From: Tubulanus polymorphus
Taxonomy: Eukaryota; Animalia; Nemertea
Length of the DNA stretch: 64,000 bases
Direction: 5' to 3'
Assembly (NCBI RefSeq): GCF_964204645.1
Contig: NC_134035.1
Coordinates: forward strand, 6,593,001-6,657,000
The stretch's first letter is position 1. Every line of letters starts with the position of its first letter. Both the position numbers and the translations under genes were made by a program. The notes beneath the pieces were generated by a model. It did no database searches and was not told where the DNA came from. It saw only the letters and a program-made list of their open reading frames with translations. Of this stretch, positions 13,307 to 38,069 are shown in pieces.

Positions 13307-13655
13307 TGGAGTTAAGAAAAAGGCTAGATCCGAGAAACAAATTAAATGGGCAAGAGAATTAGGTAAAAGATCTTCATTAAAAAAAGCTAAGAAAAAGAAA
13401 TTAACTGATATAAATGAATCACCTGATATTGATTCAAATAATAATCCATCTAATTCTTCTAATGCTGGAAGTAATTAAAAATTATATATTACAATTGGAT
13501 TAGTAACAGTTATTATATTATCCGGTGTAATATATAAATCAAAATTCAAATCTGATGATAAATATGATTCCAATGACAATAAACCTATCATACCAGAAAA
13601 TAAGTCAAATCATAAAACCATTGAAACTAAATCTAAATTATTATTAATGAATTAA
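13299..13655 (+). pseudogene. Small basic protein with one TM helix, interrupted by a stop
   Basis: TAAATG start; 'KKKARSEKQIKWARELG' matches 'KKKPRSQ*QIEWSRQLG' at ~43520; hydrophobic 'LYITIGLVTVIILSGVIY'. Confidence 0.6.
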
Positions 13656-13661
13656 AATAAG

Positions 13662-14772
13662 ATGAAAAAAGAAGAATATTTAAGAGAGTTATATAATAAC
13701 CCAGAAAGTGAAGTATCATATTCTAACGTTACAGAATTATGGAATAAAATTAAATCTGATAATGAAAATGGTGATGGTGCCGTATGGCACCCACATGGTG
13801 GTATAAGATATAGTGAATTAAAATCATGGTTACAAAATCAACCAACATATCAAATACACAAGAAAATGGATAAAACTTATTTAACAAGAAAGGTTATGGT
13901 TTCATATATTGATCAACAATGGCAAGCTGATTTAATTGACATGAAGAACTTAGAGGAATACAACAAAGGATATTTCTGGATATTAAATGTTATAGATATA
14001 TTCAGTAGATACGCATGGTCAATTCCAATCAAAAATATAACTGGTATAGAAGTGACAAATGCTTTTAAATCAATATTTAAAGAAGCTATTCCAGATAAGA
14101 TACAATTTGATGAAGGTAAGGAATTTTATAACAAACATTTCAAAAAACTATTATCTGATAACGATGTAGATTATTTTTCAACACATTCAGATAAAAAAGC
14201 ATCTATTATAGAAAGATTTAATAAAACATTGAAAACTAGAATGTGGAAATATTTTACTGCTAATGAAACATATAAATATATCAATGTGTTAGATGATTTA
14301 GTGAAAGGTTATAATAATTCTAAACAAGTTCTATAAATATGAAACCTATAGAAGCTAGAAAAGAAGATAATTCGGAAATAGTATGGAATAATTTATATGG
14401 AGCGTTTGTAACACATAATTTCGGTGAACCTAAATTTAAAATTGGACAACACGTAAGAATATCTAAATATGGAAAAATATTTTATAAAGGTTATACCCCT
14501 AATTTTACAGAAGAAATATTCAAGATTAAAAAGATAATATAAACTAAACCATTTGTTTATAAATTAGAAGATTTAAAAGATGAAGAAATATTAGGTTATT
14601 TCTATGAACAAGAATTATCACTTGTACCAAATCCAGATGAAATAGAATACAAAATAGAAAAAGTATTGAAAACAAAAACCCTTAAAGGAAAAAAGTATTC
14701 TTTGGTGAAATATAAAGGATATGATGATAAATTTAATGAATGGATTTTATCTAGTAAAATTAAAAGAATAAA
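13662..14772 (+). pseudogene. int: Polinton retroviral-like (rve, DDE) integrase with C-terminal chromodomain; disrupted
   Basis: WQADLIDM, VIDIFSRYAW, QFDEGKEF, IERFNKTLK; tail 'EYKIEKVLK...LVKYKGYDDKFNEWI'; split at ~14336 and ~14542. Confidence 0.93.
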
Positions 14773-15383
14773 TGAATAAAGATTTATTTATATTTGAACC
14801 GGATAATATGTTAGTTACTGGAGTAACCAATTGTGGTAAAACACATTTCATATTAGATTTGTTAGAAACTGTTTATAAGAATCATTTTGATAATATAATA
14901 TTATTCTGTCCTACTTATGAAATGAATAAAACATATAATAGAGATATAGTTAAGATGAAAAAGTTTATTATATTAGATCCTAAAACAGTAAAAGAAAATT
15001 TAGATAATTGTATAAAAATAGCAATTGATACTTATAAAGGATCAAATACATTATTCATCGTAGATGATTGCGCAAATTTACATGATTCAAAAGTGAGAGA
15101 AAGTGAGTTATGTTATTTAGCTTTCTCTGGGAGACATTTTGGGATAACAACATGGGTTTTAAATCAAAAATATAATTCAATTGTTAAAGACTTTAGGGAG
15201 AATATAAGATTTCTAGTTTTATTTTATAACAAAGATAAAAAATCTATGCAACAATCATTGGAAGAAAATCAAATTATACCTACTGAGTTACATGATGAAT
15301 ATATGAATAAATTAAAGAATAATAAAGGTTCAAAATTATTACTGAGATTACAATTTCCCTATGAATATAAATTTATAAAATAA
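14772..15383 (+). CDS. DNA packaging ATPase (A32/FtsK-HerA family)
   Basis: Walker A GVTNCGKT, Walker B FIVDD, GRH arginine finger and downstream Q; homolog at 42033-42641. Confidence 0.93.
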   Translation: MNKDLFIFEPDNMLVTGVTNCGKTHFILDLLETVYKNHFDNIILFCPTYEMNKTYNRDIVKMKKFIILDPKTVKENLDNCIKIAIDTYKGSNTLFIVDDCANLHDSKVRESELCYLAFSGRHFGITTWVLNQKYNSIVKDFRENIRFLVLFYNKDKKSMQQSLEENQIIPTELHDEYMNKLKNNKGSKLLLRLQFPYEYKFIK

Positions 15384-15750
15384 CTATTTGTATATCTATG
15401 TATTAGATACCCTATTAGATACCCTAATACCTGATGCCCTATTAGATACCCTATTAGATACCTTAAATACTTAAAACCCCCTTTTTTAAAATTAATATTA
15501 TTTATACAATTTTCAACCAGTTTATTTTTATTTTTTCAACTAATATATGAATAAGTTTGAAAATAATAAAGGTTATTTATTATTACTGAGGTTTCAATTT
15601 CCATATGAATATAAGTTTATAAAATAAGATATTTTATGTATTAGATTGTATTAGATATGTATTAGATATGTATTAGATACCTTAAATACCTTAAATACTT
15701 AAAAGCCCCTTTTTTATTTACTATTATTTTTACAATTTTCAACCTTTATT
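15297..15750. repeat. ~240-bp tandem duplication of the ATPase 3' end plus TATTAGATACCC micro-repeats
   Basis: 'aatatatgaataa...tttataaaataa' at ~15297 and ~15542, each followed by tattagata repeats and 'aaatacttaaaa.cccc.tttttt'. Confidence 0.75.
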
Positions 15751-15778
15751 ATTATTTGAGTTAAATATAATTAATATC

Positions 15779-16662
15779 TTAATCACTTTCACTATCAGAC
15801 CCTAACAATCTATTCAATTTCTCTACCGAATCTTCTTCTAATTCTTCATTATTTTTATACTTATTCTTCACCCTTTTTACCGCATCATCAATAGTTGTTT
15901 CATTGTTATGCTTATTCATCCAATCAAATTTATCATTATTTTCTACTTTATGTTTCATAGAATCTTTAATATCAATATGCTTATCTGTAACTATATCTTC
16001 ATTATTATCTTTATTAGTGTTTGCTCCTAATATTTCATTCACAGTGTTTGATCCTAATAAATCTTTATTATTAGCATCGGTTAAATCTAATTCATCTTTA
16101 TTAGGTGTTGCTAATAATAAATCTTTATATAATTCTTTACCATTTACTTTTTGATTTGAAACAAACTTATCAAAACATATCTAAATGGGTGTTCTAAAAA
16201 TTCTTTTAAACCAACACGATCTATTACATTAGTAATATGTAAATTTGTATTCATATGTTTATTCCAATTTGATGTAGCGTTTGAATATTCACCTTTACAA
16301 TATCCACAATAATTTCTATTTTCACTAACATTTAATATTATTTCATTATTTGATGTAGAGGGTATTACATTATTAGATGTAGAAGGTATTACATTATTAG
16401 ATGTAGTAGGTATTACTCTATTAGATGTAGTAGGTATTACATTATTAGATGTAGAAGGTATTACATTATTATCAATTACATTACTTAAATTATCAACGAC
16501 ACCACTTTTATCATTATCGATTTCTATTAGTTTAGTTTTATAAATTTTGAAAATAGGATCAAATATCAAAGCTATATTACAAGGTATTTCATAATATAAA
16601 CCATCATTATTTTCATGTGTATCGATGTATGGAATATGTTTATATACTTTACCTCCTTCCAT
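15779..16662 (-). pseudogene. Element 1-specific protein with 8-aa repeats (NNVIPSTS), a C2H2 zinc finger and acidic tail; probably one gene with a frameshift at ~16146
   Basis: ORF 16144-16662 continues in another frame (NGKELYKDLLL...) into ORF 15779-16042; YCGYC...HMNTNLH finger. Confidence 0.65.
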
Positions 16663-16694
16663 TTATTATATAAATTTTTATTAAAGTTAAAATT

Positions 16695-17940
16695 TTAATA
16701 CATAACACTATTCAATTGAGAATTTACAATATTTAATTGCGCGTCAGATATAATATAAATGTGCATTTTAAAATTTTTGATTCCTTTATTCTTTGTCATG
16801 AATAATTGTATTCCATCTTCAGTGTTCTGTAGTTTTTTTCCAGAACCATGTAATGAATTATCCTCTGTTGTTCTAAAATCTAACCATAATGCGTATTTAT
16901 TACCGGTATAATAATCAATTTGATTAATGTTACAATTTTCAGATGATTTTACTTTTTCATTCATAAAAAGTTTTCTAATTTCTGGCCATTGATCTATCAT
17001 TCTCATTCCTTGACAAAATATGTTATTTGCTATTCCTTCGATAGTTATTTCTACTTTTGTTATTTCAGGATTATAATAATTATCAACATTTATTGCGCCA
17101 TTTGTATATGTTGCATTGGTAAAAAATATTAATATACTTTTAATAGATCTTCTTGGGAAGTTAATATTCTCATTAATAATTTCATCATTTGCATTAATAG
17201 TTACAGTTTTAAATTTATCAATATAATCATATAATAATGAAAATCCTTGATTGTATTTAGTTTGAATTATACTTGAAATATTTTCATCAGTTACTGTATC
17301 ATATTCTAAACATATATTCGATAATTTATAACTCATATCTTTATTAACGCTAGATATTACAATTTCATTAACAGGAGCAAATGTTATTTCGAATATAACG
17401 TCTTCTTGAATTGCGTATTTATATAAAGGCGCATTGTTATTTATCAATTCAAAGTCTAATGGAATTTTATATTTGCTTCCATATATACTTTTTATCAATT
17501 TATCTATAGCATTAGTTAATATTGCATTATGTGCTTCTGATCTTAATTTATTTTGGTTTTCTGATTGGATTCCTTGAAATATCATATTATTTGTAAGTTT
17601 CAGTTAACCATAAATCTTTATAATGCATAAATAAATTATAATCATCTAATGAGAAAACTGTTTCTGGACCAATCTTTATAGTTTATTTTTTAATCAAATA
17701 TCTCCCAACATTATCGACAACATAATTATTATTATTACCGATTACTTTTATATCGGCTGATAAATAAATACTATTTGGAACATAAAAAGTATTTTGTGTT
17801 AATCGAGGGATTCTAACATATAAAGTTTCATCAGGATTAATATTAGAAGGGTTATGAGTAATTATATGATGTGATCTTTCTGCTTTAATAGCATTAGATA
17901 TTCTATGATTCTTAGAAGGATTGATATAACTCCCACTCAT
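16695..17940 (-). pseudogene. Putative major capsid protein (double jelly-roll), frameshifted
   Basis: ORFs 17683-17940 + 16695-17585 give ~410 aa, beta-rich (IPLDFEL, LSNICLEYD, KVEITIEG, LWLDFR); size and context fit a Polinton MCP; near-identical copy in element 2. Confidence 0.75.
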
Positions 17941-19403
17941 TTATTTAACAAAAAAATTAAACATTTATTTTTTATCATGTTTACTAAACCAAAAATAATA
18001 GCACTTACAACTGTAATTAAAAATAAAATAATATGTTCAGCAGCAAAGTTAATAATGTTTCCTGCAGATTTCAATATAAAACCAACAATTGATGCAATAA
18101 CTCCTGGCAATGCTGCAGCAGATCTTTTAGATAGTTCCCATAAATATTTTGCTAATTTCTTTAAACCATCCTTAACTTTATCTTGTATAGAATTATTATC
18201 ATTCGGGGGTTTATCTGGTTTATTGGGAGTAGGAGTGGATTTCAAAGCATTTGATATTGCTAAACCAATTGTTGTAAATAACATAGTTACAGCTGTTAGA
18301 ATTGAAAGAATTGTTATTCCTTCTAACATAAATAATAATTTTATTCTATCTTTCAATGATATTTCAGAATTTGGTTTTATCAACAAATCTTTAAAAATAA
18401 CTTTTAATCTATTAATATTAAATTCATATGATTTTAATAATGATTTAATTACTTCTTTTTGTACTTCTAAATTATCTTTTAAATTATTAATTTCTTTTTC
18501 TAAACGTAATTCTTTTTTCCTATATTCTATTTCATCAATTACTTGACGATCAAGATCAGACTTTAGTTGTTCTATCTCTTTATTTTTATCAGTTAATTCT
18601 TTTTCTAAAGTACTAATTTTAATATCTCTTATACTTTTATTATGTGCAATTTTATCAGCTTCATTTCTTATACTAATAATTTCTCTAATTGCTTCATCAG
18701 ACAATATATTTAAATCTTCTAATTCTTGATCTGTTGCATCAAGTAATCCATTTGGTAAAAGTTTTTCAGTTTGAACTCTTCTTGATTTAGGTTTACTAGT
18801 TTTGGAATTAATAACTTCTTTAGTAATTGTTTCTGGTTCTAAATTTTCATTAATTATCTTCAAAAAATAATCATTTCTTTGTTTAAATTCTTTTATATTA
18901 TCATCTCTTTTTTCTTGTTGTAACATCAGTTATAACATCATTAATGATTTTCTTAATTCTAGATTGTTTTAATAAATTAAAAGTTGATTGTGTTATTATT
19001 TTATCGTTACTGTTAAGATTTGAAATCTTAAAATAATTGCCTTTCAATTTCCAATAATAATCGCCATTTAAATATTTCAAATCTTCTACTAAATAATCCA
19101 TACCTTTATTTGTTATATCGAAACCAGATCTTTTTAACATTGGTTTAAAATCACTAGCAATTTCATTATATTTTAATTTTCTTTTTCTAATTCTGGTACT
19201 TCATTTTGAATATATATTCTCGATTTAGCTCCTCTAATATATTCATCTGTTGATGGGGTTTCAGAACCAGGAACAACTTCTGGTAAATTAGTATTATAAT
19301 CTGGCTCATTATCATCATTAAAACTTGCTTCATCAAAATCAGGTTGTTGTTCATCACTTATACCGGGTTCATATAAAGGATCTACTCCACCTTCTACATC
19401 CAT
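17937..19403 (-). pseudogene. Coiled-coil protein with C-terminal transmembrane helices, two frameshifts
   Basis: ORFs 19173-19403, 18901-19140 and 17937-18926 together match the continuous ORF 38070-39452. Confidence 0.85.
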
Positions 19404-19419
19404 TTATATAATAAAAAAA

Positions 19420-20742
19420 TCAAAATTTTAAATATAATATTCCTCCGATTACAATTCCTATACAAGTTAAAGCTAATTTAGTATTTTCATGGGATTTATT
19501 ATCATCATTTAGTTTAATTATTTCATGTTGAATATTATCAGTTTTATATTTTCTGTAGTATTGTAATCTTTTATTTTAGAATCATTATTTAATTTAATAT
19601 TCTTAGTTTTAGTTTCTGTTGATTGAATGTGTTTTTTATTTTTTTCACCTTCCATTAATTTTGGAGCAGTAATAATCTTTTTATTTATATCATTTAATCC
19701 AAATGAATTATTATTGTTGCAGTTTTAATTAGATTATTATAACCAATTATGTTTCCCATCTTTAATACTAAATCATTAGAAATAACAAATAGATTAGGGC
19801 CTATACAATAATTTAATCTAATATGTGATCTATCTAAATAATTTTGATATCTTACAATGTTTTCTGGAATCGATCTATTTTATCATTATGAATTGAATCT
19901 TCAAATAATACTTTGAATTGTTTCTGCGCATCGAATGAAGTGTTATCATTTCTAATTATTGGGGATCTTGTTTCAACTTTCGCGCCTAAAATACATATCA
20001 AATAAGTTCTAATAGATTGATTTATTCTTTGTATACCAGCTTTAGTAAAACCTTCACTATTTTCTAAAATGAAATTAACCCAACCATTATTGTTTTGTTG
20101 TTGTATATTATTATAATATTTTGGTAATTCATTCCAATTTAGTGTTCTTATATCTGAATTTGTCATTATTTTTCCAAATTCCTTAGTATACAATATTCCT
20201 AATCCACCCATTGTTCCAATTTTTGCTCTAAAATCTTTATTTGAATCAATATTAAATTCATAACATATTTTATAAAACTTAGAAAAATTAATATTATTAT
20301 TCAATTCTTTAAAATATTTTGAACCTGGTAAAGGACATTCTAATTCATCTAATATTAATTTTATTTGAAAATATGTATGAAATCTAAAAAGTGATAACAT
20401 CAATGGTAAACTTGGTTTGTTTAAATGATCATTCCAACTAATTCCGCATCCTGTTGTTGCGCAATAAACAGCAAAATTTAATTGGTTCTGCCAATACTTC
20501 ATATTAGATTTTATTAACCATTGTTTTGCCTCATTTAAATTTTTAAATTTAATTTCATAAACATTGAATATATTTTCCATCTTTACATGAAAATTATTAC
20601 TTTCAGTAACATAAATATATAAATCAATTAATGAATCTAAAACTTCATTTCTATATGTAATATCTTTATTAAAATCTATTGCAGGAATATTATATTTAAT
20701 TGATTTATTATATTGGAAAGCTTTTGGAAAACTATCTGCCAT
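19420..20742 (-). pseudogene. Conserved Polinton protein (WQNQLNFAVYCATTGCGIS) with C-terminal TM anchor, frameshifted
   Basis: ORF 19852-20742 plus broken tail ending 'NLALTCIGIVIGGILY'; both ends match 37418-38053. Confidence 0.8.
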
Positions 20743-20758
20743 TTATATAATTAAAAAA

Positions 20759-21184
20759 TTAATAATTTATTAATTCTTTTAATAATTTATCTTGTTCTTC
20801 AACTGTTATATGACCATTTAAACTTATTATATAATCTAGTGTATTCTTTAATTTATTAATTTCTTTTATATTAATTTTAATTTTTTGTTTATTACTTTTT
20901 ATATTTAATTTTGAACTTATATCAGTTAAAACACTTGAACTTAATCCTAATACACCAATTGATATAGCTAAAGGTGTTAATGGTGAAAATATTGCTAGAA
21001 ATGTTATTACAGAACTAATTGTAACCGAACCACTAATAATCAAATAATATATAATTTTACTTTTTAAATATTTTTTCTTTTTTATCTTTAAGTCACTTTC
21101 AAATTCTAATATTTGTTTTTCTAAATATGTTTTTAATTTAGTTTTATTTATATCATGAGGAATAATATCAATATTATCATCCAT
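20759..21184 (-). CDS. Small two-TM membrane protein
   Basis: Hydrophobic hairpin IIYYLIISGSVTISSVITFLAIFSPLTPLAISIGVLGLSS; homolog 36978-37401. Confidence 0.85.
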   Translation of the reverse strand: MDDNIDIIPHDINKTKLKTYLEKQILEFESDLKIKKKKYLKSKIIYYLIISGSVTISSVITFLAIFSPLTPLAISIGVLGLSSSVLTDISSKLNIKSNKQKIKINIKEINKLKNTLDYIISLNGHITVEEQDKLLKELINY

Positions 21185-21204
21185 TTATTTAGCAAAAAAA
21201 ATTA

Positions 21205-21625
21205 CTAATTAGTAAACTTATAAGCAACAAATATAACAATAACTGTTCCACCTAAAATCCAAATTATTTCATATTTCTGTTGTTCATTACTTGGGGTATA
21301 ATAATCTGATAATTTAGGTTTGTATAGATGTAATTTTTCTTTATTTGTTACCGCGTTATATAAACTCATTGCATCATCAGCTGATTGAAAATCTCTGTAA
21401 AATCTTCTGATCATATAATTCTTTATTGATGTAATCCATATAGTTTTGTCGTTTTTCTCTGTATTCTTCTGCTGCTTTATTGTATTTTTCTAATGCTAAG
21501 TTATGTCTTTTTTGTTCTGTTAATGATCCATTTTTATCAATATGCTTGAATAAATAACCGCCACCAGTAAATGCTAAAGCGTTAACAATTGCCGATCCTA
21601 TAATAGTTATAACTGCAGAAGCCAT
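21205..21625 (-). pseudogene. Small protein with N- and C-terminal hydrophobic helices, frameshifted
   Basis: ORFs 21377-21625 + 21205-21414; homolog 36534-36957. Confidence 0.8.
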
Positions 21626-21876
21626 TTATTTAGTAAAATAATTATGCATTTATATAGGAGGAATATATTTTTGTTTTGTTTTTCCAAATAATCAATAGTT
21701 AAACTAGATAAAGTAACTGCTAATGTTAATTTTAAAATATCATTGATATCAAATCTATCAACATTAACACTTCCCATTTTGAATACTTTTTTTAATACCA
21801 TTGAATAACCAACAGTTCCAACTGATAGTAATGCTCCATTATATAATCCAGTTATTATCCACTTATTATCACTCAT
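21607..21876 (-). CDS. Small hydrophobic protein (true stop probably near 21650)
   Basis: TAAATG start; homolog 36289-36509. Confidence 0.7.
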   Translation of the reverse strand: MSDNKWIITGLYNGALLSVGTVGYSMVLKKVFKMGSVNVDRFDINDILKLTLAVTLSSLTIDYLEKQNKNIFLLYKCIIILLNKWLLQL

Positions 21877-21879
21877 TTA

Positions 21880-22234
21880 TTTATCAAAAAAATTACTATC
21901 ATCAAAATATTTAGTTAACTTATTTATGATTAATTCAACATTTATTTCATTACTAGTTTCATTTGTATATATTTCAATTATTATTTTTTTTAATATCATC
22001 GATGATAAAATCTTCATCTAATTCATAAAATCTTAAAGATCTTCTAATTAAATTAGTAATCTTTTCTACATTTAAAGTTTCTTTATCTATTGTTTTTTCA
22101 TACTCAAATGTTGTTTCATTAGAAAATGCAATATTTTTGATATGTGTAATTACATCATTAATGTTAAATTTCATTTCTTTCTCACGTTTAAAATCAAACC
22201 CAAAGCATATACTCGGTCCAACAGTTATATTCAT
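21880..22234 (-). pseudogene. Small hypothetical protein, frameshifted
   Basis: ORF 21974-22234; homolog 35928-36284. Confidence 0.65.
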
Positions 22235-22249
22235 TTATATAATGAAAAA

Positions 22250-22952
22250 TTACTCTCTACATCTTATAACTAATTCATATATCACAGGAAAGTTATTTAA
22301 ATCAATTAAGTATCCATTATGATTTCTTATTTCTATAATTTATTTGCGTTCCAAATTGTTTAACATTCTTTAATGGTAAAATATTTAATATACTAGAATT
22401 ACAAATTGCATCTTTAGTTGCTTCAAATGTTTTTGTAGGATCAATTAAATTGCAATAAATATAAAAGTGTGTAAAAGGTATTAAGTTTGGTGTAGCATCA
22501 GCATTGCGTATCCTTACATCTGGGGTTATTCCTAAAATTTTAGCTAAAGGTTTTTTAACTAGAAATTGATGTTGATCTTCATTACCTAATTTTATTCTTA
22601 TTTTATCGGAGCTATCACTTTTAATCAGTCTTAATCCAAATCCAGCAGATGCACCCATTTTCAACCGAGCTCTTCTATTAATTTCCTGCGCTAATGTATC
22701 TAAATTATATAATCCTGGTTTAAGGTAAAGATGAAACCATTCACTTTTATTTCTATCATGAATTAAAAAGACTCTATGTTCAATAGTTTTATCCGATATA
22801 TTGTAAAAAGAATTACATAAACTTATATTTACTAATTTTAAATCTACACAATTCTTGAATTCTCTATCTAATTGTACTAGTAAATTATGAGATTTATAAT
22901 TTGTAAGTTTTCTAGAATCAACAAATATTCTGTATTCTTTTAATTCCGCCAT
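22250..22952 (-). pseudogene. Putative minor capsid (penton) protein with a small 3' deletion
   Basis: 'IFVDSR..ISLCNSFYNI..PGLYN...L...IN..FYIYCNLI..ILNILP..G..INY' pattern resembles Polinton/PLV pentons; lacks 'NLTECDFKPCIPQFNNFKL' seen in element 2. Confidence 0.7.
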
Positions 22953-22969
22953 TTATTTTACATATTTTC

Positions 22970-23323
22970 TTATTCGAAATCTATTTCATGGTGCCCTTTT
23001 GCATTCTTACCTTTGTATACGAAATAGAAATCTCCAGAACATAATTCTTCCAAGTCTTCACTTGATAATCTATGAAATCTATCTGGTAAATATGTTCTGA
23101 ATTTATATGTATTTCCTTTTAATCCTTCATATTCTAAGTGTATAAATAATTTATTTCCATATTTGTTAGTAACTGTATCAATATTTGTAATTAGATATTT
23201 CTTATGGATTGTTAATTCTGTTAACTTCTTAAATTTATAATCTACAGATTTTACATTTGTAGTATCTTTTATTCTATCTAGAAATAATTTGTTGTTCTCA
23301 CTGTGTGTTTGTTTACTCTCCAT
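22970..23323 (-). CDS. Small hypothetical protein, possibly OB-fold nucleic-acid binding
   Basis: Intact ORF; 'KKL.E....KYG.K....LPD....GKN..GHH' shared with 44002-44328; fold is inference. Confidence 0.7.
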   Translation of the reverse strand: MESKQTHSENNKLFLDRIKDTTNVKSVDYKFKKLTELTIHKKYLITNIDTVTNKYGNKLFIHLEYEGLKGNTYKFRTYLPDRFHRLSSEDLEELCSGDFYFVYKGKNAKGHHEIDFE

Positions 23324-23352
23324 TTATAATACATAGTTTTATTAAAATTTGA

Positions 23353-26300
23353 TTAACACGTTAGAATTCTTTTCATTATTTCCTTCTCTTTTGTTTCTTC
23401 TCTTTTAAATTTTAAATATTCATCTAAATTACAACCATAAGCAACTGTATGAATTCCATCATCTAAAATATATCTTTTATCATCAAATGGGTTTAGACTA
23501 ATCTTTTCAATTTCTTCAATAAACATTTCATGATCTTCAGATCTTAAACATCTCATCTTATGTTTTCTAACTTCTTCATTGAATATACAATTGATGTAAT
23601 CTCTGAAATGAATATTCTTTTCTACTACACTTTTGGTTATTCCTTTTAACTTTTTAGCTTCATGTTCTTTAGTTTTATATGAATACATTTTAGATCTAAT
23701 ACCGATGAACTCTATCATTTCTTCACCACCTAATTCATCTTTGAATTTACCGGGAACTTTCTTATTATCATTGCTAAACAATTCATGATCTTTAGGATAG
23801 TTACTGAAATCAAAATGATGTTTTAATGTTTTTAAATCATCTGTTATGTTATCAGTTTTTATCTTTAATATGTAAGAATCGGTATCAAAATATAATATTT
23901 CTATATGTTTTTCTCCAAAAAGTGGTTGTAATACATTATAATAGAATTCATACATTAGTAATTTTGATAATTCTAAAACTGAAGCGCCAACATAGATTGG
24001 TTTATTAAATTTCATTAATGTTCTTCTCATCTTAACTGCAGCTAAATTTTCATCAAATATTCTGTTACCAATGAACTTAGGATATGATTGTAAATGTCTA
24101 ATTCTTTTACCATTACTAACTAACTCAATATCATTTCTATTTCTAATATTTTCACAAGTCTTACCATAGAATGCATTATTCATTAACTTGAAGAAATCTT
24201 TCTCAAAATCAGTTTTAGCTTCAGTTATCTGTTTGGTGTTAAAATCTATATATTTTTCTAACCACTTAGATTGACTGAATGAAATATATCTATGTACTTT
24301 TTTTAGAACCATTCCTTGTTTTAGATAAAACTTTAACATTCTATAATGTACTACATAATTATATTTATCTTCTTGAGTTACCATTAACTTTTCTGTATGA
24401 ATATGATTTTCGGGTTTAATTCTTTTTTGATGATTTGATAATTCTTCATGAGTAACAGTTTTATGTCCTGGACAGTATGCTAGATTTCTAGATTTAAATG
24501 TTTTATCTTCAGGATATTCTAAATCTACAACAAAGAAGTAACCAGTATCTGAATCATCTGCAATATCTAGAATTCTTTTCTTCCAATCAAATTTATCATT
24601 ATATTCATTCTGTAAAACTTCAGTTAATTCAAATACTCCATAAGGTTGTGGTTCCATCATTGCCCAACCATATAAATTATTTGCATCTATATATAATAAC
24701 TTATATCCAGGGTTATCATTTACATTGAAATATCTATCCCCTAATACACCTGAAACTCCTCCTCTTATAGATTTTTCAAATAATAGTAATTGATCTATAT
24801 TTGTTAACAAATCCATTTTTATATCTGTAAATTTTAATCCACAATCCCATGTTAAACCTGGTGATGAATAACAATGACAAGGATCAATGTTAAAATATTT
24901 TAGGTTTACATCTCTAAACCTTTCGAATATATCAGTTAATAATAATACATCTGATTTTAGATATGAATCTACTAATTGTCCATGATTTTCTATTTTGAAA
25001 TGATTCCAAATATTCAATGTTCTATTATATACTTCATCTTTAACATATTCATTTTTTAATTCATCATAGAATTGTTCTTTTAATAATTCAGTTATGCTAA
25101 AATCATTATGATTTTTATAGAAAGAATATGGAATTGCGCCTTTATATCTCATTTATTGGAAATCATCATTATTTGGGTAGTGTTGTTTTAATATTCTTAA
25201 TTCATCATCAACTAATGATTTTGATAAGTTATCTAATGAACTATTTAAAAATCTATATGAATCTATAAATCTTAAACACCCAAATTGGAATGATATAATT
25301 CTCAGATGTTTTAGCTAACATTCTAAATTTATAAGTTGGTATTTTATCTTTAGATCTATTTGAATTTAATCTTTTTATTTCATTATTAATTTCTTCTATT
25401 TTATGGCATAACTGTTTGATGAATAAATGTGCATCATATCCTGATAGATTATGAAATATAACTGGTACAAAGTTAATTTTCTTAGCTTGTAAGTTACAAT
25501 TCTCATGTGCAGCGCCTCTAAACTTTCCGTTCAAATGATCATGGTCTCTTACTATTTTATCTTTATAATTAGATATCTTTTCACAATAATAACATTTACC
25601 TGTAAACACAAATTCTTCTTTATCTTCTTCTGTCATAATTATTTCTATATTTGTATTCAATAATTTACTAAATCTTATTTCATATTCAATTAATAAGTCA
25701 CAAAAATGATTGATAACATTTTCATTTCTATAATGATAATATTCACTTTCAATTAGTTCTAAATAATCAGATTTAATATATAACCCGAAAGCTGCAGCTG
25801 ATTGATGAATCTTTTTAATTGTATTTGTTATTGGTGGTTCATCTGAAAATTTTCATTAGAATTTAATTTCTTTCTTTTATAATATATTTCTTTTCTATCT
25901 TGATCAGTTAGTTCTTTATTTAATGATTCAAAATCTCCATATATAACAAATGGAACTTTATTTTTGTAATCATATTTTTTGAATTCTAATATTTTATCTT
26001 TTTCATTTGGTAAAACTAATTTACAATAATCATGATTTTCACATAATTGTTTATGATTCAATAATGTACTTTCATTACTGAATCTATATAAACATTTTCT
26101 ACAAAGATATATTTTATGGTGATCATTTTCTGATTTAAAAAATAAATCGATTTGTTTAATCCACATATAATGATTCTCATAATATAGTATATCTATAACA
26201 TCGTTTGAATCATAATCTTTTGATAGATATAAAGGTTCTAATGTATAATGTTTTATATTGTTACCTTTCGTATTTGGTAATTTGATTAAATCAAATACAT

Positions 26301-27384
26301 TTATCTTTATATTATTATCTCTTTTTTTTGGGATGTTTTTAATTCTAACAGGATACTTATCTATCTTATAATTATTTTCAAATTGTTTATAATTTGTTAA
26401 TCTATAAGTATGTTTATTATAATCTTCAACTGGGTGTAAACAACTTATTATAGCCCATAGAAAACATTTATCATCTTCATTTAGTACATTTATGACAGCA
26501 TTAGTTTTAAATGGTAGTTTAATATAACTCGATGCTTCAATATCTGGTTCTTTATAATATGATACATTATTTTCATCAATTGGTTTTGATTTAGTTAACT
26601 TATTATATTTTGTGTTATGAACATGTAAAGTCATAAATATTATTTCATCAAATATTAAACCAGATCCTTCAAAATATTTCTCTTCTATTTTAGTTTTTAC
26701 TTCATTATAACATTTAGCTAATTTACCATCTATATGTTGTTTAGATATAATATGTTGTGAATGAGAATTTATATTGTATATTGGTTTATCTTCAGATTTT
26801 ATAAACTTTACTTTAGAAGATATACTAATTTTAGGGTATTCAACATCAGTTATTATTTTTATTATTTCTTTCATATTTTCTAAATGTTTTTTATTTTCTT
26901 CTAATGTTTTTCCTTTATGAAATTTAAACTCAATAGCTGCTGGACCAATATCACTTTTAAATGCTTCGGTCATCTCTATATCTTTTTTATTATCTAATGA
27001 ATTAATATAATTTCTTACATCTTCCATGTATGGTCTTTTATTGTTTAATTTATTTTTTATGCTTTTAATTGTCTTCTGTTTCTTATCATTATCTTTATCA
27101 AAATAATCTTCACCTAAAATATCATTATTCATATTTCTAATATGACTTTTAGATTTTAAATGTTCATTATAATATCTTTTATCACTGAATGATAGATTAA
27201 ATGTATCACATTTGTATGTTTCTTTTTCATTCTTTAATTCATCTAATTTAGTTTCTAATATATCATCTTTATATTCTAGTTTCAATTTATTCTCTAAATG
27301 TGTTTTAGTTTTATTGTGTCTTGCTTTTTGGGATTTATCTATATTGATATTACATGTTGGACAGTAGTACTTATTTGCTTCCAT
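23353..27384 (-). pseudogene. polB: Protein-primed family B DNA polymerase (N-terminal C2H2 fingers, putative vOTU-like domain, endonuclease VII-like insert), frameshifted; intein-free allele
   Basis: ExoI YGDFES, ExoII FHNLSGYD, ExoIII YLKSDV, motif A YIDANNLYGWAM, motif B KLMNNAFYGK, motif C YFDTDS, RSKMY, KGI; CxxC..VRDHDH..G..RG.AH..CNL. Confidence 0.96.
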
Positions 27385-27437
27385 TTTAATACTAATTTTT
27401 TTTTAAAATTGATTTTAGAAGTTCAATGATTTATATC

Positions 27438-27804
27438 ATGTATTATTTCAATCACACTTTACTAACACTTTTAATGTTTAAAAATCAAACTCATACAAAT
27501 ATAAATATTGAAATAATGTTGTAAATATATCTATATATCTATTCTATAAGAGCTCACACTTTTATATTGAATAATCTATCAATTTAAATGTTATTCATGT
27601 AAATGAATATTTTAAGAGTCATAGGGGTAATGGGCTTTCAGGCTAAAGGTTGAAGGGGCGAGTGAGTAAAAAATGAAAATAACAATAATTTACAGTTGAA
27701 TTAGGAGTGTGCGCGACTAATTTAACTGTAAATTATTGTTATTTTTATTTTTTACGAGCTCGACCCTTCGACCTTTGGCCTGAAAGCCCATTACCCCTAT
27801 TACT
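27438..27804 (-). repeat. Right TIR of element 1 with terminal palindrome (27617-27804)
   Basis: Reverse complement of 10311-10678. Confidence 0.95.
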
Positions 27805-28719
27805 AAAGTCGATCCGTAAAAGTGCTCATATCGTCAGGAAAAGCGTTTTTTGACCCGAAAACGTCGTTCAGCGCGAGAAAAGACGTTTTCGTATCAAACA
27901 TTCACCCTATCGGAAAGATGAAAATGTCGATGCGTAAAAGCGCTCAAATCGTCAGGAAAAGCACTTTTCTACCCGAAAACGTCGTTCAGCGCGAGAAAAG
28001 ACGTTTTCGTATCAAATATTCCCCCTATCGAAAAAATGAAAATGTCGATGGGTAAAAGCGCTCAAACCGTCAGAAAAAGCACTTTTCGTCGCGAAAACGT
28101 CGTTCAGCGCGAGAAAAGTCGTTTTTGTATCAAATATTCCCCCTATCGGAAAAACGACAATGTCCATGCGTAAAAACGCTAAAATCGTCAGGAAAAGCAC
28201 TTTTCGTCGCGAAAACGTCGTTCAGCGCGAGAAAAGACGTTTTCGTATCAAATATTCCCCCTATCGGAAAACCGACAATGTCGATGCGTAAAAGCGCTCA
28301 AATCGTCAGGAAAAGCGCTTTTCCACCCGAAAACGTTGTTCAGCGCGAGAAAAGACGTTTTCGTATCAAATGTTCACTCTATCGGAAAAACGACAACGTC
28401 CATGCGTAAATGCGCTCAAATCGTCAGGAAAAGCGCTATTCGACCCGAAAACGTCGTTCAGCGCGAGAAAAGACGTTTTCGTATCAAATATTCCCTCTAT
28501 CGGAAAAACGACAATGTCGATGCGTAAAAGCGCTCAAATCGTCAGAAAAAGCACTTTTCGACGCGAAAACGTCGTTCAGCGCGAGAAAAGACGTTTTCTC
28601 ATCACATTTTCCCCGTATCGGAAAAATGACAAAGTCGATCCGTAAAAGCGCTCCAATCGTCAGGAAAAGCACTTTTCGACCCGAAAACGTCGTTCAGTGC
28701 GAGAAAAGACTTTTTCGTA
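27805..28719. repeat. 118-bp satellite spacer (~7.7 diverged monomers) between the two Polintons
   Basis: Same monomer, in phase with the flanks of both insertions. Confidence 0.95.
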
Positions 28720-28789
28720 AGTAATTGGAAAAGTGGGCTTTCAGATCAGAGGACGAGAGGACGAGACACCACTCATCACCACAAGTAAT
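28720..28789 (+). repeat. Left TIR of element 2
   Basis: Reverse complement of 44638-44707. Confidence 0.95.
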
Positions 28790-28804
28790 TTTTTTTCCTA
28801 ATAA

Positions 28805-31800
28805 ATGGGGGAGAATGAACACCAGCCAGAAAACAATAATGTGAATAAAAATCAATATTATTGCACATATTGTAAAAAATACGTCGTAACATCTAATGAA
28901 ACACGACATGAAAAAACTGCAAATCATATAAAAAATGTAATAGATTTTGAAACTCCAGAAAATTCCAATGAAAGAAAAGAAAGATTAGAAAATATGAATG
29001 TGGATGAAATAAAATGTGAAGTTTGTAATGAATTTATAGTAAAAAGGAATTATAATAGACATCTCGAATCACATAAACACCATCAAAATTTGAGTAATAA
29101 TGTTTTAGGAAAAGATTTTTTTGATGATAAACCTCAAAAAGTAAAAAAACCAAATTCAAAAACTAAATCCATTTCAAATAAACCTTACATGGAAAATGTT
29201 AGAAATTATATTGATTCACTAGAAATAAAAGATACAATTGAAATTTTAGAAACATTACTACATAGTAAAATTGGTCCTGCAGCTATTATATTTAGATTTT
29301 TTAAAGGTACAACAATAGAAGATTATAGTAAATTTAATGAAATAATAGAAAAAATACTAGATTTGATAACAGATGTTGAATATCCAAAAATTAGTATCTC
29401 TGGGAAAGTAAGTTTTATAAAGTCAGAAGAAAAAATGGATTATAATATTCAAACACACTCTGAAGAAATAATTTCAAAAACACAAATAAAAGAGAAGTTA
29501 GAAAAAATATTTGATGAATTTAAACGTCATATTGAAGAAAGATATTTTGAGGGTTCTGGCTTAACATTGAATGAAATTATATATTTAGATTTAAATGTTT
29601 ATAATATAAAAAGAAATACAAAATCAAAAAGTAATAAAATGTTTAAAAATGATTCAAACTTTACAACAGAAAAGGATATTAAAGCATCATCTTATATTAA
29701 ATTACCATTTACAACAAAAGCAGTAATAAATATTTAAAATGAAGATTTTCTATGGTCAATTATTAGTTGCTTACATCCAACACAGGAAAATGTTTGTAGA
29801 ATAACAGATTATCGGAAATATGAAACATTATATAAAATTGATCAATATCCAGTAACTATAAAAATGATTTCTAAAATAGAAAAAGTTAATAATTTAAAAA
29901 TAAATGTATTCGAATTAATGCAATTACCAAAGACAAAAGGTGAACATATTAAAGATTATACATTGGAAGCTTTATATTTAACAGAATATTATGATGATGA
30001 AAATGCTATAGATTTGTTTTATTACAAAAAAGATGAAAATGAACATTATATGTGGTTAAAACAAATTGATTTATTCTTTAGAACAGAAAGTGATTATCAT
30101 CAAAAAATTTATCTATGTAGAAAATGTTTATCTAAATTTATGACTGAGAATACATTATTAAAACATAAAGAATTATGATAATAAAGATTTTTGTAAATTA
30201 ATAATGCCAACAGAAAAAGATTATAAATTGAAATTTACTAATCATAAATTTAAGAATATTGTTCCATTTGTAATTTATGGGGATTTTGAATCGTTGAATA
30301 AAGAATTAACCGATCAAGATAGAAAAGAAATATATAACAAAAAGCAATTATTTAAATCAATGGATAAAGGAAATGAATTAAATGAAGACACAACACAAGA
30401 CCCACCCATTATAAATACAATTAACAAAGTTCATCAAAGAGCTGCTGCTTATGGAATTTATATAAAATCAAATTATCCTGAATTATATGAAAGTCAATAT
30501 ATTTCTTTTAGAGGTGAAAATGTAGTTAATGATTTTTGTAATAAAATGATTGAATTAGAAAGTGATTTTGCAAAATTATTAAACAAAAATAAAAGAATAG
30601 TTATGACAAAAGAAGATGAAATTGATTTTAATTATGCAACTCATTGTTGTTATTGTGAAAAACGTTTTTATTCATTTGATAAAAAAGTTAGAGATCATGA
30701 TCATTTAAATTCAAAATAACGTGGAGCTGCTCATGAAGATTGCAATTTACAAGCTAAGAAAGTTAATTTCGTACCAATATTATTTCATAATTTATCAGGC
30801 TATGATACCCATCTATTTATAAAACAATTATCAGGAAAATTGGGTTCAATTAATCAAGAAATAGAAGAATATAATGCTATGAATGGTGTAAATGTAAGAA
30901 AATATGATTTTAAACTATTAGCTAAAACATCTGAAAATTATATTTCATTTCAATTTGGTTGTATTTGATTTTTAGATTCTTATAGATTTCTAGCAAGTTC
31001 ATTAGATAATTTATCAAAAAGTTTAGTTGATAATGATTTTGTTATAACTCGATATTATTATCCAAAAGACCAAGATTTTAAATTATTGAGATATAAAGGC
31101 GCAATTCCTTATTCATTTTATAAAACACACAATGATTTTAATGTAACAGAATTATTAAGAGATCAATTTTATGATCAATTAAAAGAGGAGTATGTGAAAG
31201 ACGAAGTGTTTAATAGAACATTACATATTTGGAACCATTTTAAGATGAAAAATCATGGTGAATTAGTTGATTTATATTCAAAATCAGATGTTATGATATT
31301 GGCTGACATATTTGAAAAATTTAGAGAAGTTAATTTGAATCATTTTAATGTTGATCCTTGTTATTGCTACCCTAGTCCTGGTTTAACCTGGCAATGTGGT
31401 TTAAAATATACAAATGTAGAATTAGATTTATTAAAAGAACCAGATATGGTTTTATTATTTGAAAAATCAATTAGAGGTGGAATGATGAATATAAATTATT
31501 ATATATTGACGCCAATAATTTGTATGGTTGGGCAATGATGCAACCTCAGCCATATAAAAATTTTATATTAACAGAAGTTGAAAATGATGATAAAACTAAT
31601 TGGGAAAGCGCAATTATGAGTTTAGAATATGAAGCACCAATTGGTTATTTCTTTGTAGTTGATTTAGAATATCCTGAAAATATAAAGTTTAAAACAAGAA
31701 ACTTACCTTATTGCCCAGAACATTTAACTGTAGATGATAGTTATTTAAGTGAATACCAGAAGAAAATAAAACCGAAAGATCATGTTTTTACAGAAAATTT

Positions 31801-33870
31801 AATACTTTCTCAAAATAATAAATACAATTATATTGTTCATTATAGAATGTTAAAATTTTATCTAAAACAAGGAATGAAATTAAAGAAAGTACATAGATAT
31901 ATTGAATTTAATCAATCGAAGTGGTTAGAAAAATATATAGATTTCAATACTCAACAGAGAACCATATCAAAAACAGATTTTGAAAAAGATTTCTTCAAAT
32001 TAATGAATAATAGTTTTTATGGTAAAACATGTGAAAATATTAGAAATAGAAATGATATTGAATTAGTAAATAATTCTGAAAGATTAAGACATTTACAATC
32101 AAGTCCTAGACATTTAGGAAATACAAGATTTGAAGATTATTTAACCGCAGTAAAATTAAAAAGAACGTCAATGAAATTTAATAAACCTATATTCATTGGT
32201 CCAACTGTTTTAGAAGTATCAAAATTATTAATGTATGATTTTTATTATAATGTTTTACAACCACTTTTTGGGGAAAAGCATATTGAATTATTATATTTTG
32301 ATTCTGTAACAGCTGACACCCCAATATTATTAAAATGTAATGATAAAATATTGATAAGAAGAATTTCAGAAATAATTCCAAAACAAAATGAATGTTATAT
32401 TTCATATGGTGAAAAAGAATTAATACAAATAAATGGATTAATGGATGTTTGGACAATAAATGGATGGAAAAAATTAAAGAATATTATTAGACATAAAACA
32501 AATAAGAAAATCTATAGAGTTAGAACTAAATTAGGGTTTGTTGATGTTACAGAAGACCATAGTTTAATTAAACGAAATGGCGATGAAATAAAACCAACTG
32601 ATTTAAAAATTGGAGATGAATTATTACATTAAAGATTTTTCCAAAGAATGAATCATATTAATATTAAGGATTTTTCATGAGTGATGGTTCAGCAGGTGTG
32701 TATAATTATGTTAATCGCACTCAATATTGCTGGTATTTATGCAATCAAGACTTAAAATTATTAGAAAGAATAAAGAAATTCTGTGAAGAAGTTTATCCAA
32801 ATAAAACATTTAAAATCATGGATGTTATGAAATCATCGCAATGTTATAGAATACATGTGAATAATCCTAAAGATTTTGCTATAAAATATAATGACGAATT
32901 CCATATTCATGCAATAGTGAAAAGTAATACTTCAACTAAAGAAAAGATAGTGCCAGATTATGTATTAAATGCAAAAAATAATTTAAGAAAATGGTTCTTC
33001 ATTGGATTCTATGCCGCAGATGGCACTAAAAAATTTACAAAGGATAAAAAGATAACCTTTGCACAGAAAGGAAAAGTTGCTATATCAGGGTTAAATATAT
33101 TATGTAATTCATTAGGCTTCAATACGAATATTGGGTTGATTAAATCTAAACCAAATTGCTTGAATTTAAGCCACACAGAAAAAGATTTAACTGAAGAAGT
33201 TAAAGATTTATTTGAAATATATAACCCAACAGATTATGTTTATGATTTATCAACTGAAGATGGTACATTTAACTGTGGATTTCCATTAATAGCCCAAAAT
33301 ACCGACGCCTACATACTAAAAATCAAGACAAATGACATAACAAAAGACTTAAAAACATTAAAACATCATTTTGATTTTAGCAATTATCCCAAAGATCATG
33401 AACTATTTAGCAATGATAATAAAAAGATTCCTGGTAAGTTTAAAGATGAATTAGGGGGTGATGAAATGATTGAATTTGTTGGGATAAGAAATAAAATGTA
33501 TAGTTACAGAACAAAAGATCATGAAGCTAAAAAGTTAAAAGGAATAACAAAACATGTGGTTGATAAACATATAGAATTTCAAGATTATATAAAGTGTTTA
33601 TATAACTCAATTGTAATGAAACATAAAATGAATTGTTTAGGATCAGAGGATCACGAGATGTACATTAATGAAGTTGAAAAAACTACTTTGAATCCATTTG
33701 ATGATAAAAGGCATATTTTAGATGATGGTATAAAAACATTACCTTATGGCCATAAAAACATAAAATCAATATCATCATACTCGAAATCACTATTGGCTTC
33801 TTCATTTTCATTTAATTGTTCTTGTATAATTTGTTTAGGTTCTTCCATTTCATTTTTCTCATTTCAATAA
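28805..33870 (+). pseudogene. polB: Protein-primed family B DNA polymerase with intein; several stops, frameshifts and small deletions
   Basis: ORFs 28805, 29864, 30204, 31086, 31520 and 32677 are colinear with the element 1 polymerase; YGDFES, FHNLSGYD, DANNLYGWAM, KLMNNSFYGK, YFD|TD. Confidence 0.96.
32303..33300 (+). mobile_element. Intein with LAGLIDADG homing endonuclease inserted in PolB motif C; frameshifted
   Basis: YFD|SVTADTPILL (block A), DVTEDHSL (block B TxxH), GFFMSDGS and GFYAADGT (two LAGLIDADG helices), YVYDLSTEDGTF (block F), LIAQN|T (terminal Asn, +1 Thr); removal restores YFDTD. Confidence 0.95.
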
Positions 33871-34217
33871 AGTTCTATCTTGTTCCACATTTCATCTCGC
33901 TCTCTTTGTTTCTTTTTGTTTGTTAATTCATCAAATGGAATTATAATAGCTATGTTTAAATAATTTACAATCTTATTTAAAAAGAATTCATTGAATTTAT
34001 TGAATCTGTTATTCTATTTTCCAAATGATACATTAATATTTGTTTAAATATTTTTTTTATATTTTCCATATCTTCTTCTGTTAATTTAGGTTTTTCATAA
34101 TAATCGTTAAATAATAAATATAAATACATTTTCTTTTGTTTTGTGTTAAACGTTGATGGAATAATTGTTTTATAATATCTTTTTTAGTTATTTCACCATT
34201 TTTATTTTCTATTATTT

Positions 34218-35075
34218 TCATTTTTTCAAGCCATTGCATATATTCTGATCTTCTATAGAAAATATTTTAGAAATTTCATCTAGATAATTTAATTTTGGAT
34301 CTATGAGAAAATTTCTAGTTTTTTCTTCACCCCATAAATTCTTTTGCCATCCACAATCAACACAAAATAACACAGTACCTTCTTGTCTTAAGGTCGCGTA
34401 TTTACATTGTGGGCATTTTTGTTTATAATTTCTTGGTAATAGATCTCCATTAAGCTCTTGGTATTTTCTTACGTTTTCTTTATGTTTTATTGTTCTATTA
34501 TGTAGATTTGAATTACTTGTTGTAATAATCAATTTACAATATTTACAATAATATGTTTTTCTTGTTAATTCATTATATTGTTTTTCTAACTTTTCAACTG
34601 TTTCTTTATTATCTGGTAACGTTTTCTCATATTTTATTTTTTCTAATATATTATTTTTTCTTTCATTGAATTCAGTTTCAAATTTATTAGAAATTTTATC
34701 TATATGTGCTTTACGATATTGATGATTCTCCCAATCTTCTATATTTTCAGGGCTATATTTTATTCGACAAGGCTCGCAGAAATGATCTTTTATATTATCC
34801 TTATCATAGAATATGAAAGGTCTTTTCCAAATAATTTCAGGTTCAAGTTCAACAGAATTACTATTACTTTCATTACTATCAACATTAGCCATTGCGCCAT
34901 TAATTTTACACTTCTCTGAATGTTTTTTAACATAATTTCTTGAGAATAATTTATTACATTTTGGGCAGTTTAGTTTAGGGGGTTTATAATTTTCATCATG
35001 TTTTTTCATATGTCGAGCCATATTACTTTTTCTTAGAAGTTCACCACAAATTTCACATCCTATCTTCTCATCCAT
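34218..35075 (-). CDS. Multi-zinc-finger protein (C2H2 fingers and a Cys4 ribbon); a broken tail probably extends to ~33760
   Basis: CEIC..HMKKH, CPKC..HSEKC, CEPC..HQYRKAH, CKYC..HNRTIKH, CPQC..CVDC. Confidence 0.8.
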   Translation of the reverse strand: MDEKIGCEICGELLRKSNMARHMKKHDENYKPPKLNCPKCNKLFSRNYVKKHSEKCKINGAMANVDSNESNSNSVELEPEIIWKRPFIFYDKDNIKDHFCEPCRIKYSPENIEDWENHQYRKAHIDKISNKFETEFNERKNNILEKIKYEKTLPDNKETVEKLEKQYNELTRKTYYCKYCKLIITTSNSNLHNRTIKHKENVRKYQELNGDLLPRNYKQKCPQCKYATLRQEGTVLFCVDCGWQKNLWGEEKTRNFLIDPKLNYLDEISKIFSIEDQNICNGLKK

Positions 35076-35139
35076 TTATTAAGGAAAAATTTTTTTAAAA
35101 TTAATTTTTAGTGATGAGCGGTTATTTATGTTATAAATA

Positions 35140-35911
35140 ATGGTAGAATTAAAAGAATACAGAATATTTGTTGATTCAAGAAAACTTACAAATTATAAAT
35201 CTCATAATTTACTAGTACAATTAGATAGAGAATTCAAGAATTGTGTTGATTTAAGATTAGTAGATATAAGTTTATGTAATTCTTTTTTATAACACATCGG
35301 ATAAATCTATTGAACATAGATTGTTTATGATTTTTGATAGAAATGCCGATGAATGGTATCATATATTTATAAGACCAGGATTAAATAATTTAAAAACATT
35401 AGCGAAAGAAATTAATAGAAGAGCTAGGGCAAAAATGGGCGCGGCTGCTGGATTTGTAATTAAATTTTTAAAAAGTGATATCAATAATAAAGTAAGAATA
35501 AAGTTAGACAAAGACATAAATTTAATTTTAAAACATAAATTTTTAGTTAAAAAACCTATGGCAAAACTGTTAGGAATTAATCTAGATAAACTTTATTCAA
35601 ATGTTGATACTACGCCAAATATAATACCTGTTACGCACTTCTATATTTATTGTAATTTAATTGATCCTACAAAAACTTTCGAAGCAACTAAAGATACAAT
35701 TTGTAATTCTAGTATACTAAATATTTTACCATTAAAAAATGTTAAACAATTTGGAACGCAAATAAATTATAATTTAACAGAATGTGATTTTAAACCTTGT
35801 ATTCCTCAATTTAATAATTTTAAATTAGAAATAAGAAATCATAATGGATATTAAATTGATTTGAATAACTTTCCTGTAATATATGAATTAGTTATAAGAT
35901 GTAAAGAGTAA
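35140..35911 (+). pseudogene. Putative minor capsid (penton) protein, frameshifted
   Basis: Homolog of 22250-22952; includes ORF 35321-35854. Confidence 0.7.
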
Positions 35912-35927
35912 TTTTTTCACTATATAA

Positions 35928-36284
35928 ATGAATATAGCTGTTGGACCGAGTTTATGTTTTGGATTTGATTTTAAACGTGAGAAAGAAATGAATTTAACGT
36001 TAATGATGTAATTACACATATCAAAAATATTGCATTTTCTAATGAAACAACATTAGAGTATGAAACAACAATAGATAAAGAAACTTTAAATGTAGAAAAG
36101 TTTACTAATTTAATTAGAGAATCTTAAGAATAAGATTTTATGAATTAGATGAAGATTTTATTATAGATGATATCAAAAAAATAATAATTGAAATATATAC
36201 AAATGAAACTAGTAATGAAATAAATGTTGATTTAATCATAAATAAGTTATCTAAATATTTTGATGATAGTAATTTTTATGATTA
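35928..36284 (+). pseudogene. Small hypothetical protein, disrupted
   Basis: Near-identical to 21880-22234. Confidence 0.65.
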
Positions 36285-36288
36285 ATAA

Positions 36289-36509
36289 ATGAGTGATAAT
36301 AAGTGGATAATAACTGGATTATATAATGGCGCATTACTATCAGTTGGAACTGTTGGTTATACAATGGTATTAAAAAGGTATTCAAAATGGGAAGTGTTAA
36401 TGTTGATAGATTTGATATCAATGATATTTTAAAATTAACATTAGCAGTTACTTTATCTAATTTAACTATTGATTATTTAGAAAAACCAAAATATATTCCT
36501 CCCATATAA
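36289..36509 (+). pseudogene. Small hydrophobic protein, frameshifted
   Basis: MSDNKWIITGLYNG... as in 21607-21876. Confidence 0.7.
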
Positions 36510-36533
36510 ATACATAATTATTTTACTAAATAA

Positions 36534-36957: not shown

Positions 36958-36977
36958 TAATTTTTTTTGTTAAATAA

Positions 36978-38053: not shown

Positions 38054-38069
38054 TTTTTTTATTATATAA

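Follow-up and report, generated by a model that had tools for sequence, protein, structure and literature searches.

The closest described counterpart of the insert reported here is the mimivirus PolB intein, which sits at YGD|TDS, the pol-c site (PMC549080). In the accessible text of PMC5784728, viral inteins are listed for giant-virus families and unclassified viruses only. Giant-virus-like polymerase inteins have also been described on nuclear scaffolds of algae and protists, with intragenomic intein spread in Anaeramoeba (PMC10710043), and the accessible text of PMC8529194 states that inteins are absent from metazoan genomes. The protein-primed polymerase (pPolB) of Polintons contains HNH and VSR nuclease domains (PMC10748475), and it was suggested that such domains come from intein invasions (PMC11071308).

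Here, we analyzed a window of 64,000 nucleotides from contig NC_134035.1 of the nemertean Tubulanus polymorphus, which contains two Polinton elements. The polymerase gene of the first (element 1) has an uninterrupted pol-c site, and that of the second (element 2) carries an insert at the same codon. By its site and motifs, this insert is the pol-c (site III) allele of the PolB intein, and its splicing is predicted. It shares with the mimivirus intein (pol-c, site III; PMC549080) and allelic giant-virus inteins the motif C codon, a Ser start, an Asn end, Thr at position +1 and LAGLIDADG motifs. Its pieces are 47% and 36% identical to the mimivirus intein, and 76 of the 93 inteins parsed from 122 matches have YGD|TDS flanks. 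Unlike in mimivirus, the host gene is the protein-primed polymerase of an integrated, multi-copy element, the flanks vary (YFD, YMD, ASD, YLD), the Polinton inteins form a clade of their own, and filled and empty copies occur in one nucleus.

As with the domains described in PMC10748475, a nuclease lies inside a Polinton polymerase, and an HNH (endonuclease VII) domain is present here too. Those HNH/VSR domains, however, lie elsewhere in the protein, and the accessible text of that paper describes no splicing motifs for them and does not use the word intein, whereas the present insert has splicing motifs, interrupts a catalytic motif and is carried by some near-identical copies but not by others. 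The parallel with PMC10710043 lies in virus-borne polymerase inteins that reside in eukaryotic chromosomes and move between related genes of one genome; its main text mentions no Polinton, Maverick or metazoan, whereas here a Polinton carries the intein, probably in an animal host. We found no report of a splicing-competent intein in a Polinton polymerase in the literature searched, although the supplementary intein tables of PMC5784728 and PMC10710043, Repbase entries and subscription papers could hold one. What appears to be new is the class of host gene in which this pol-c intein allele occurs, together with sequence evidence of homing. We read elements 1 and 2 as the empty and filled forms of the pol-c site, with an intein that likely persists by homing with flanking DNA carried along, and we put the probability of this reading at roughly 0.6.

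Layout and modules of the two Polinton elements

Polintons (Mavericks) are defined by terminal inverted repeats and a 6-bp target duplication, and an adenain-like protease also belongs to their definition. Both elements have such repeats and duplications. Element 1 (10311..27804) has 368-nt terminal inverted repeats starting with AGT, the target duplication AAAGTC, an integrase, an A32 ATPase and a capsid-like gene, and element 2 (28720..44707) has terminal inverted repeats of ~70 nt, likewise starting with AGT, and the target duplication TTCGTA. Since each element has its own target duplication, they represent two separate insertions about 0.9 kb apart. Both are AT-rich and embedded in a 118-bp satellite, which separates them at 27808..28719 and recurs at 9759-10310 and from about 44708 to the window end. 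An Rfam search returned no match, and the 118-bp repeat is not a listed RNA. Both elements were inserted independently into this one satellite, and targeting of a centromere-like array is possible. The left flank of the window additionally holds a gag-like retrotransposon remnant (7965-9279, minus strand; weak PNMA match, E=0.0012) and a 31-bp tandem repeat at 1908-6841.

The RVE integrase and the A32 packaging ATPase scored above the Pfam cut-off in both elements. PF03175 (protein-primed family B polymerase) matched one piece of the window weakly (E=3e-4) and scored above the cut-off in the relatives P0001, P0121 and P0250; the homologues include a named adintovirus PolB. For the double jelly-roll major capsid protein, the signal was weak (Pfam Capsid_N, E=0.0099; Atlas 0.96 to capsid clusters, with recognition below the tool's trust line), and no adenain-like protease was matched among the 31 ORFs scanned in the window, where many ORFs are fragmented. 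Both elements are decayed, and their polymerase genes are split into pieces.

The capsid/structural module of element 1 (16681..22958, minus strand) is mostly 89-97% identical to 35135-40887 of element 2, and four of its genes show a dS of 0.11-0.35. The polymerase, integrase and ATPase are 67-84% identical between the elements (dS 0.92, 1.25 and 0.66, respectively), and gene order and terminal repeats differ. Close sharing between the two elements is limited to the capsid module. Elements 1 and 2 are mosaics with a recently shared structural module, reflecting module swapping between Polinton lineages.

A patch of 77% identity between the elements at 22548-22748 lies inside a gene that is otherwise 92-96% identical. 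Element 1 has a free-standing endonuclease VII/HNH-like gene (11828-12496, plus strand; PHROG 1035, E=1e-14) without an element 2 counterpart. A zinc-finger-rich ORF (34218-35075, minus strand) occurs only in element 2, and element 1 has a 117-aa ORF in that place (22970-23323).

Filled and empty pol-c sites

The protein-primed DNA polymerase B gene of element 1 occupies 23353..27402 on the minus strand in three reading-frame pieces and includes an endonuclease VII (HNH) domain. Its empty pol-c intein site (23860..23945, minus strand) lies in polymerase motif C, YFD|TDS, with the junction at 23883/23884. The original prediction had described this site as uninterrupted, and the minus strand of 23840-23960 indeed reads TTA TAT TTT GAT|ACC GAT TCT within a 599-aa frame, with the junction at that position. 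It had further described almost identical exteins around the site next to much more diverged polymerase N-termini. We found the quoted peptides in both elements, with 88% amino acid identity within 30 codons of the site, and an identity of 38-67% in the first six 60-codon blocks. Over the whole polymerase (1231 codons), the two elements are 74% identical in DNA and 65% in amino acids. At the site, 12 of 12 bases agree on the 5' side and 9 of 12 on the 3' side, that is 21 of the 24 bases within 12 nt of the element 1 site and the element 2 flanks, with mismatches at +6, +7 and +9; within 24 nt, 40 of 48 agree. An empty site on its own is the normal, ordinary state of this gene, and the value of the locus lies in the filled/empty system: among 120 listed long homologues of the Polinton type, 111 were empty, five filled and four unscored, despite an intein-containing query.

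The polymerase gene of element 2 (28805..33870, plus strand) consists of several reading-frame pieces. It reads YFD at 32294-32302, is interrupted at the same codon as the element 1 site and continues with Thr-Asp-Ala. The intein measures 998 nt (32303..33300, plus strand) and comprises an N-terminal splicing region, two LAGLIDADG motifs and a C-terminal Asn before Thr. It starts with Ser, contains an N3 Thr/His motif and ends with Gln-Asn, followed by Thr at +1; the penultimate residue, Gln in this insert, is Lys in the mimivirus intein, so the pol-c allele does not depend on His at that position. Profile matches were obtained to TIGR01445 (37.2 bits, cut-off 24.5) and LAGLIDADG_3 (23.7 bits, cut-off 22.5), and a search of solved structures gave one weak match, PI-PkoII (E=0.018). 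The element 2 copy is broken by a premature stop (32630-32632) and a frameshift near 32658-32666, and no intact in-frame LAGLIDADG endonuclease is present. In the read run X5, 221 of 222 reads have another letter at the premature stop and 128 reads continue into unlike sequence at the frameshift; both lesions look private to this copy.

Run X5 comprises raw reads with the same species label from another sample, of which 12% was read. Depth was ~180-240 over most of the intein (~100-150 at 33009-33341) at 88% likeness, and ~350 reads with 91% likeness covered the empty site. According to the original prediction, filled and empty alleles coexist in one Polinton family. The read depths confirm the coexistence, with ~220 filled to ~350 empty and many copies of each in the genome, and suggest that ~35-40% of the related copies are filled, which is a depth ratio and not a count. 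For the polymerase, the notion of one family did not hold: two alleles of a single polB family were rejected, given a dS of 0.92 and distal columns that reject a clade of elements 1 and 2 (AU p 4e-120). In an extein tree of 44 rows (8 filled, 36 empty), element 2 is sister to P0005 (100/100) and element 1 falls into a group with P0007, P0008 and P0258 (97/96), all four relatives being empty. Filled and empty states are interleaved in this tree and need at least five state changes, forced by the starred branches; P0006 and P0013 were left out, and P0240 and P0242 are fragments without the site.

Reads were also followed across the intein boundaries. At 23884, 53 X5 reads pass from the element 1 5' flank into the intein start; the element 2 flank is 90% identical there, so these reads need not be filled element-1 copies. 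In the six rows listed, no class of 14 or more reads connects the end of the intein with a 3' extein of the element 1 type, and no intein-skipping joint, as in an empty element-2-type copy, is found among the 15 of 26 joints listed. The element 2 lineage therefore looks filled and the element 1 lineage empty. This bears on the earlier proposal that the pair of sites defines the endonuclease target, of which the position is retained; the sequence is not, as three of the first nine bases 3' of the site differ, and the lack of the first class of joints among the rows listed also speaks against it. The element 1 site need not be a current target of the endonuclease. The site might resist cutting, or flank conversion might conceal copies that were newly filled.

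Further searches added P0121, P0236, P0399 and P0400. Among 119 shorter proteins, 36 join a Polinton-type extein to an intein, six of them complete. P0002 is a filled protein labelled as coming from a clam-associated metagenome bin, and the named relatives from damselfly, pearl oyster and a coral adintovirus, at 41-45% over the C-extein, are all empty. Together with the weak PNMA match in the left flank, these proteins hint at an animal host, which we consider fairly probable. Across 160 loci from viral and metagenome contigs, a protein-primed extein was found in L081 only, and a search of viral contigs with P0255 gave no match.

Probable old exchange around the intein site

The high local identity had been attributed to either co-conversion or active-site conservation, with uniform dS along polB named as the observation that would speak against the former. 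Of the 54 synonymous codons up to 30 codons from the site, 17 differ, compared with 237 of 728 in the rest of the gene (p=1), which refutes recent co-conversion between elements 1 and 2: synonymous divergence shows no dip at the site, and a tract no older than the shared capsid module is excluded. As synonymous sites stand at 93% of the saturation expected from codon use, the flat dS rules out a recent tract only, and older tracts would be invisible to it. The identity near the site exceeds that expected from the divergence of the lineages.

A candidate old exchange (co-conversion) tract was delimited by a four-taxon pattern. In element 1 it covers codons -35 to +53 (23725..23988, minus strand), matched in element 2 by the intein with its flanks (32198..33459, plus strand). 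In the comparison of element 2, its empty sister P0255, element 1 and its empty relative P0007, 105 sites support the lineages, and none of these falls within -35 to +53. Elements 1 and 2 differ at 11 of 80 residues up to 40 from the site and at 144 of 550 overall; the corresponding values are 12/80 and 90/550 for element 2 and P0255, and 14/80 and 76/550 for element 1 and its own relative. With three alternative fourth taxa, permutation gave p values of 5e-5, 0.005 and 0.003 (<0.001, 0.012 and 0.012 after scan correction), with an 80-residue window picked after the four-taxon pattern was known and sites treated as independent. The strongest discordant window in the 550 polymerase residues is centred on the site (start at -35 or -28). 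In the 3' flank from +1 to +53, element 2 shows five differences to element 1, five to P0006 and ten to its sister P0255, and from +54 to +73 this order is reversed, with five differences to element 1 and two to P0255.

An alternative explanation, which we consider unlikely, is that the local identity reflects active-site conservation plus chance convergence, that the empty state is simply the default, and that the two elements are neighbours by accident of shared satellite integration. The flat dS along polB and the 111 of 120 listed relatives scored as empty are in line with it, as is the identity of P0255 and P0007, both empty, at 29 of 30 residues just 5' of the site. The same holds for the weak tree of 88 near-site columns, which supports element 1 with element 2 at 66/82 and does not reject element 2 with P0255 (AU p 0.31). 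Conservation alone nevertheless fits poorly, because motif B, which is more conserved within lineages, keeps the lineage split: in the block from -160 to -60, identity is 83% between elements 1 and 2 and 93-94% within lineages. From -30 to +60, by contrast, the two elements are more alike (89%) than members of the same lineage (83%). It would also leave the footprint in the P0121 family, described below, unexplained. With moderate support, the near-site identity of elements 1 and 2 is likely to represent an old exchange tract, which, we infer, reached element 2 from an element-1/P0006-like donor.

Of the 136 members of the P0121 90%-identity cluster, 15 are listed; their ENA contigs range in length from 57 kb to 1.0 Mb. 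Thirteen of them were usable. These comprise seven filled and six empty polymerases that are ~98% alike away from the site. All 10 fixed filled/empty differences in 1191 columns lie at -7 to +44, and none of the others among the 1716 labellings yields more than one fixed difference. We place no weight on a Fisher p of 8e-9, for which the window was chosen from the data. Filled and empty copies are separated by a distance of 0.25 close to the site and of 0.017 over the remainder; near the site, the filled copies are uniform (0.016) and the empty ones varied (0.114 vs 0.025 elsewhere). This footprint is a protein-level one, and the members may come from one or several genomes. If an intein swept through this family together with donor flanks, and empty sites were diversified by repair or escape, such a pattern would be expected. 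P0121, a relative with an intact intein, passes the Pfam cut-offs for Intein_splicing, Hom_end and LAGLIDADG_3.

Proposed homing and probable long residence of the intein

In LAGLIDADG inteins, the endonuclease cuts empty sites, and repair from a filled copy transfers the intein together with its flanks. According to our main reading, the Polinton polymerase would be made as a precursor and would have to be spliced, since motif C is interrupted by the insert. Empty pol-c copies would be cleaved by the LAGLIDADG endonuclease and repaired on a filled template, thereby gaining the intein and tens of codons of adjacent polymerase sequence. With numerous Polintons integrated or replicating in one nucleus, donor and target would never be apart. 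We infer splicing, cutting and homing for this system.

The phylogeny of the inteins adds a longer time scale. In a tree that also contains 20 inteins of RNA-primed PolB, the 14 Polinton inteins are united in a single clade (100/100), and 12 of 12 full-length Polinton inteins retain both LAGLIDADG motifs, the first Ser and the last Asn. The intein tree mirrors the extein tree except for P0013, with three HNH-type subclades branching alike, and this agreement points to long residence, with exchange presumably occurring mostly between close relatives. The N-extein of P0013 has no clear likeness to P0001 (E=0.16), and its polymerase motif is one which we take to be VSR-like. Its intein is placed among the other Polinton inteins (83/79), with a basal position not rejected (AU p 0.061), and seems to imply an intein jump between polymerase clades. 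These intein trees are midpoint-rooted, without an outgroup; the root moved between the two trees, and P0121 is absent from the first. A direction of transfer from giant virus to Polinton is unsupported by them.

Because the intein tree mirrors the extein tree and the basal place of P0013 is not rejected, long vertical inheritance with losses fits the data as well. A single ancient intein entry, followed by vertical inheritance and many losses through recombination with empty copies, would make element 1 a case of loss or a lineage never invaded, and homing would now be rare. The like branching of the three HNH-type subclades and the single, fully supported Polinton clade agree with this scenario, but it needs about ten precise losses vs the five changes counted in the extein tree, and both endonuclease motifs are kept in all 12 full inteins. 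In the P0121 family, moreover, the filled copies are uniform beside the site (0.016) and the empty ones vary (0.114), as after a recent sweep, and P0013 demands transfer between polymerase clades. We hold this scenario to be quite improbable. Least probable of all is one ordinary recombination patch among co-resident Polintons, unrelated to the endonuclease: although the recent capsid module next to an older polymerase, integrase and ATPase (dS 0.11-0.35 vs 0.66-1.25) and the 77% patch within the 92-96% region near 22548-22748 conform to patchwise recombination, the site lies at the centre of the strongest discordant window, and nearly the same interval is covered by the P0121 footprint, which is independent evidence.

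Beyond homing as the main reading, a more far-reaching interpretation is offered tentatively, at somewhat less than even odds. A giant-virus-type intein clade in the Polinton polymerases of animal chromosomes may be actively homing between copies in one nucleus. It would then act among endogenous viruses as a natural gene drive, rewriting 50-90 active-site codons and promoting escape variation at empty sites, and the rule that animals have no inteins would fall. A true intein in Polinton polymerases would give substance to the speculation on intein invasions (PMC11071308). With dozens to hundreds of filled and empty copies per genome, one assembly would suffice to follow the homing cycle of invasion, co-conversion, escape and loss, something that is not possible with single-copy host genes. 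Polinton mosaicism would gain an explanation, and new LAGLIDADG enzymes with known natural sites would become available.

Several minor observations concern the empty sites. In P0244 and P0246, both of the P0121 cluster, and in P0019, motif C is altered at the empty site (D|CDS, D|TDC), and one 98%-identical family includes three kinds of empty flank. In run X5, 25 reads join the element 1 3' extein to unlike sequence at 23873, 10 nt from the intein site, possibly from a rearranged copy whose breakpoint lies at the endonuclease site. At 23875-23881, about half of the empty-site reads differ at three adjacent bases, leaving the Asp-Ser residues unchanged, and the Thr codon of the empty site occurs in three synonymous forms. 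These variants may represent a further empty lineage or escape variation.
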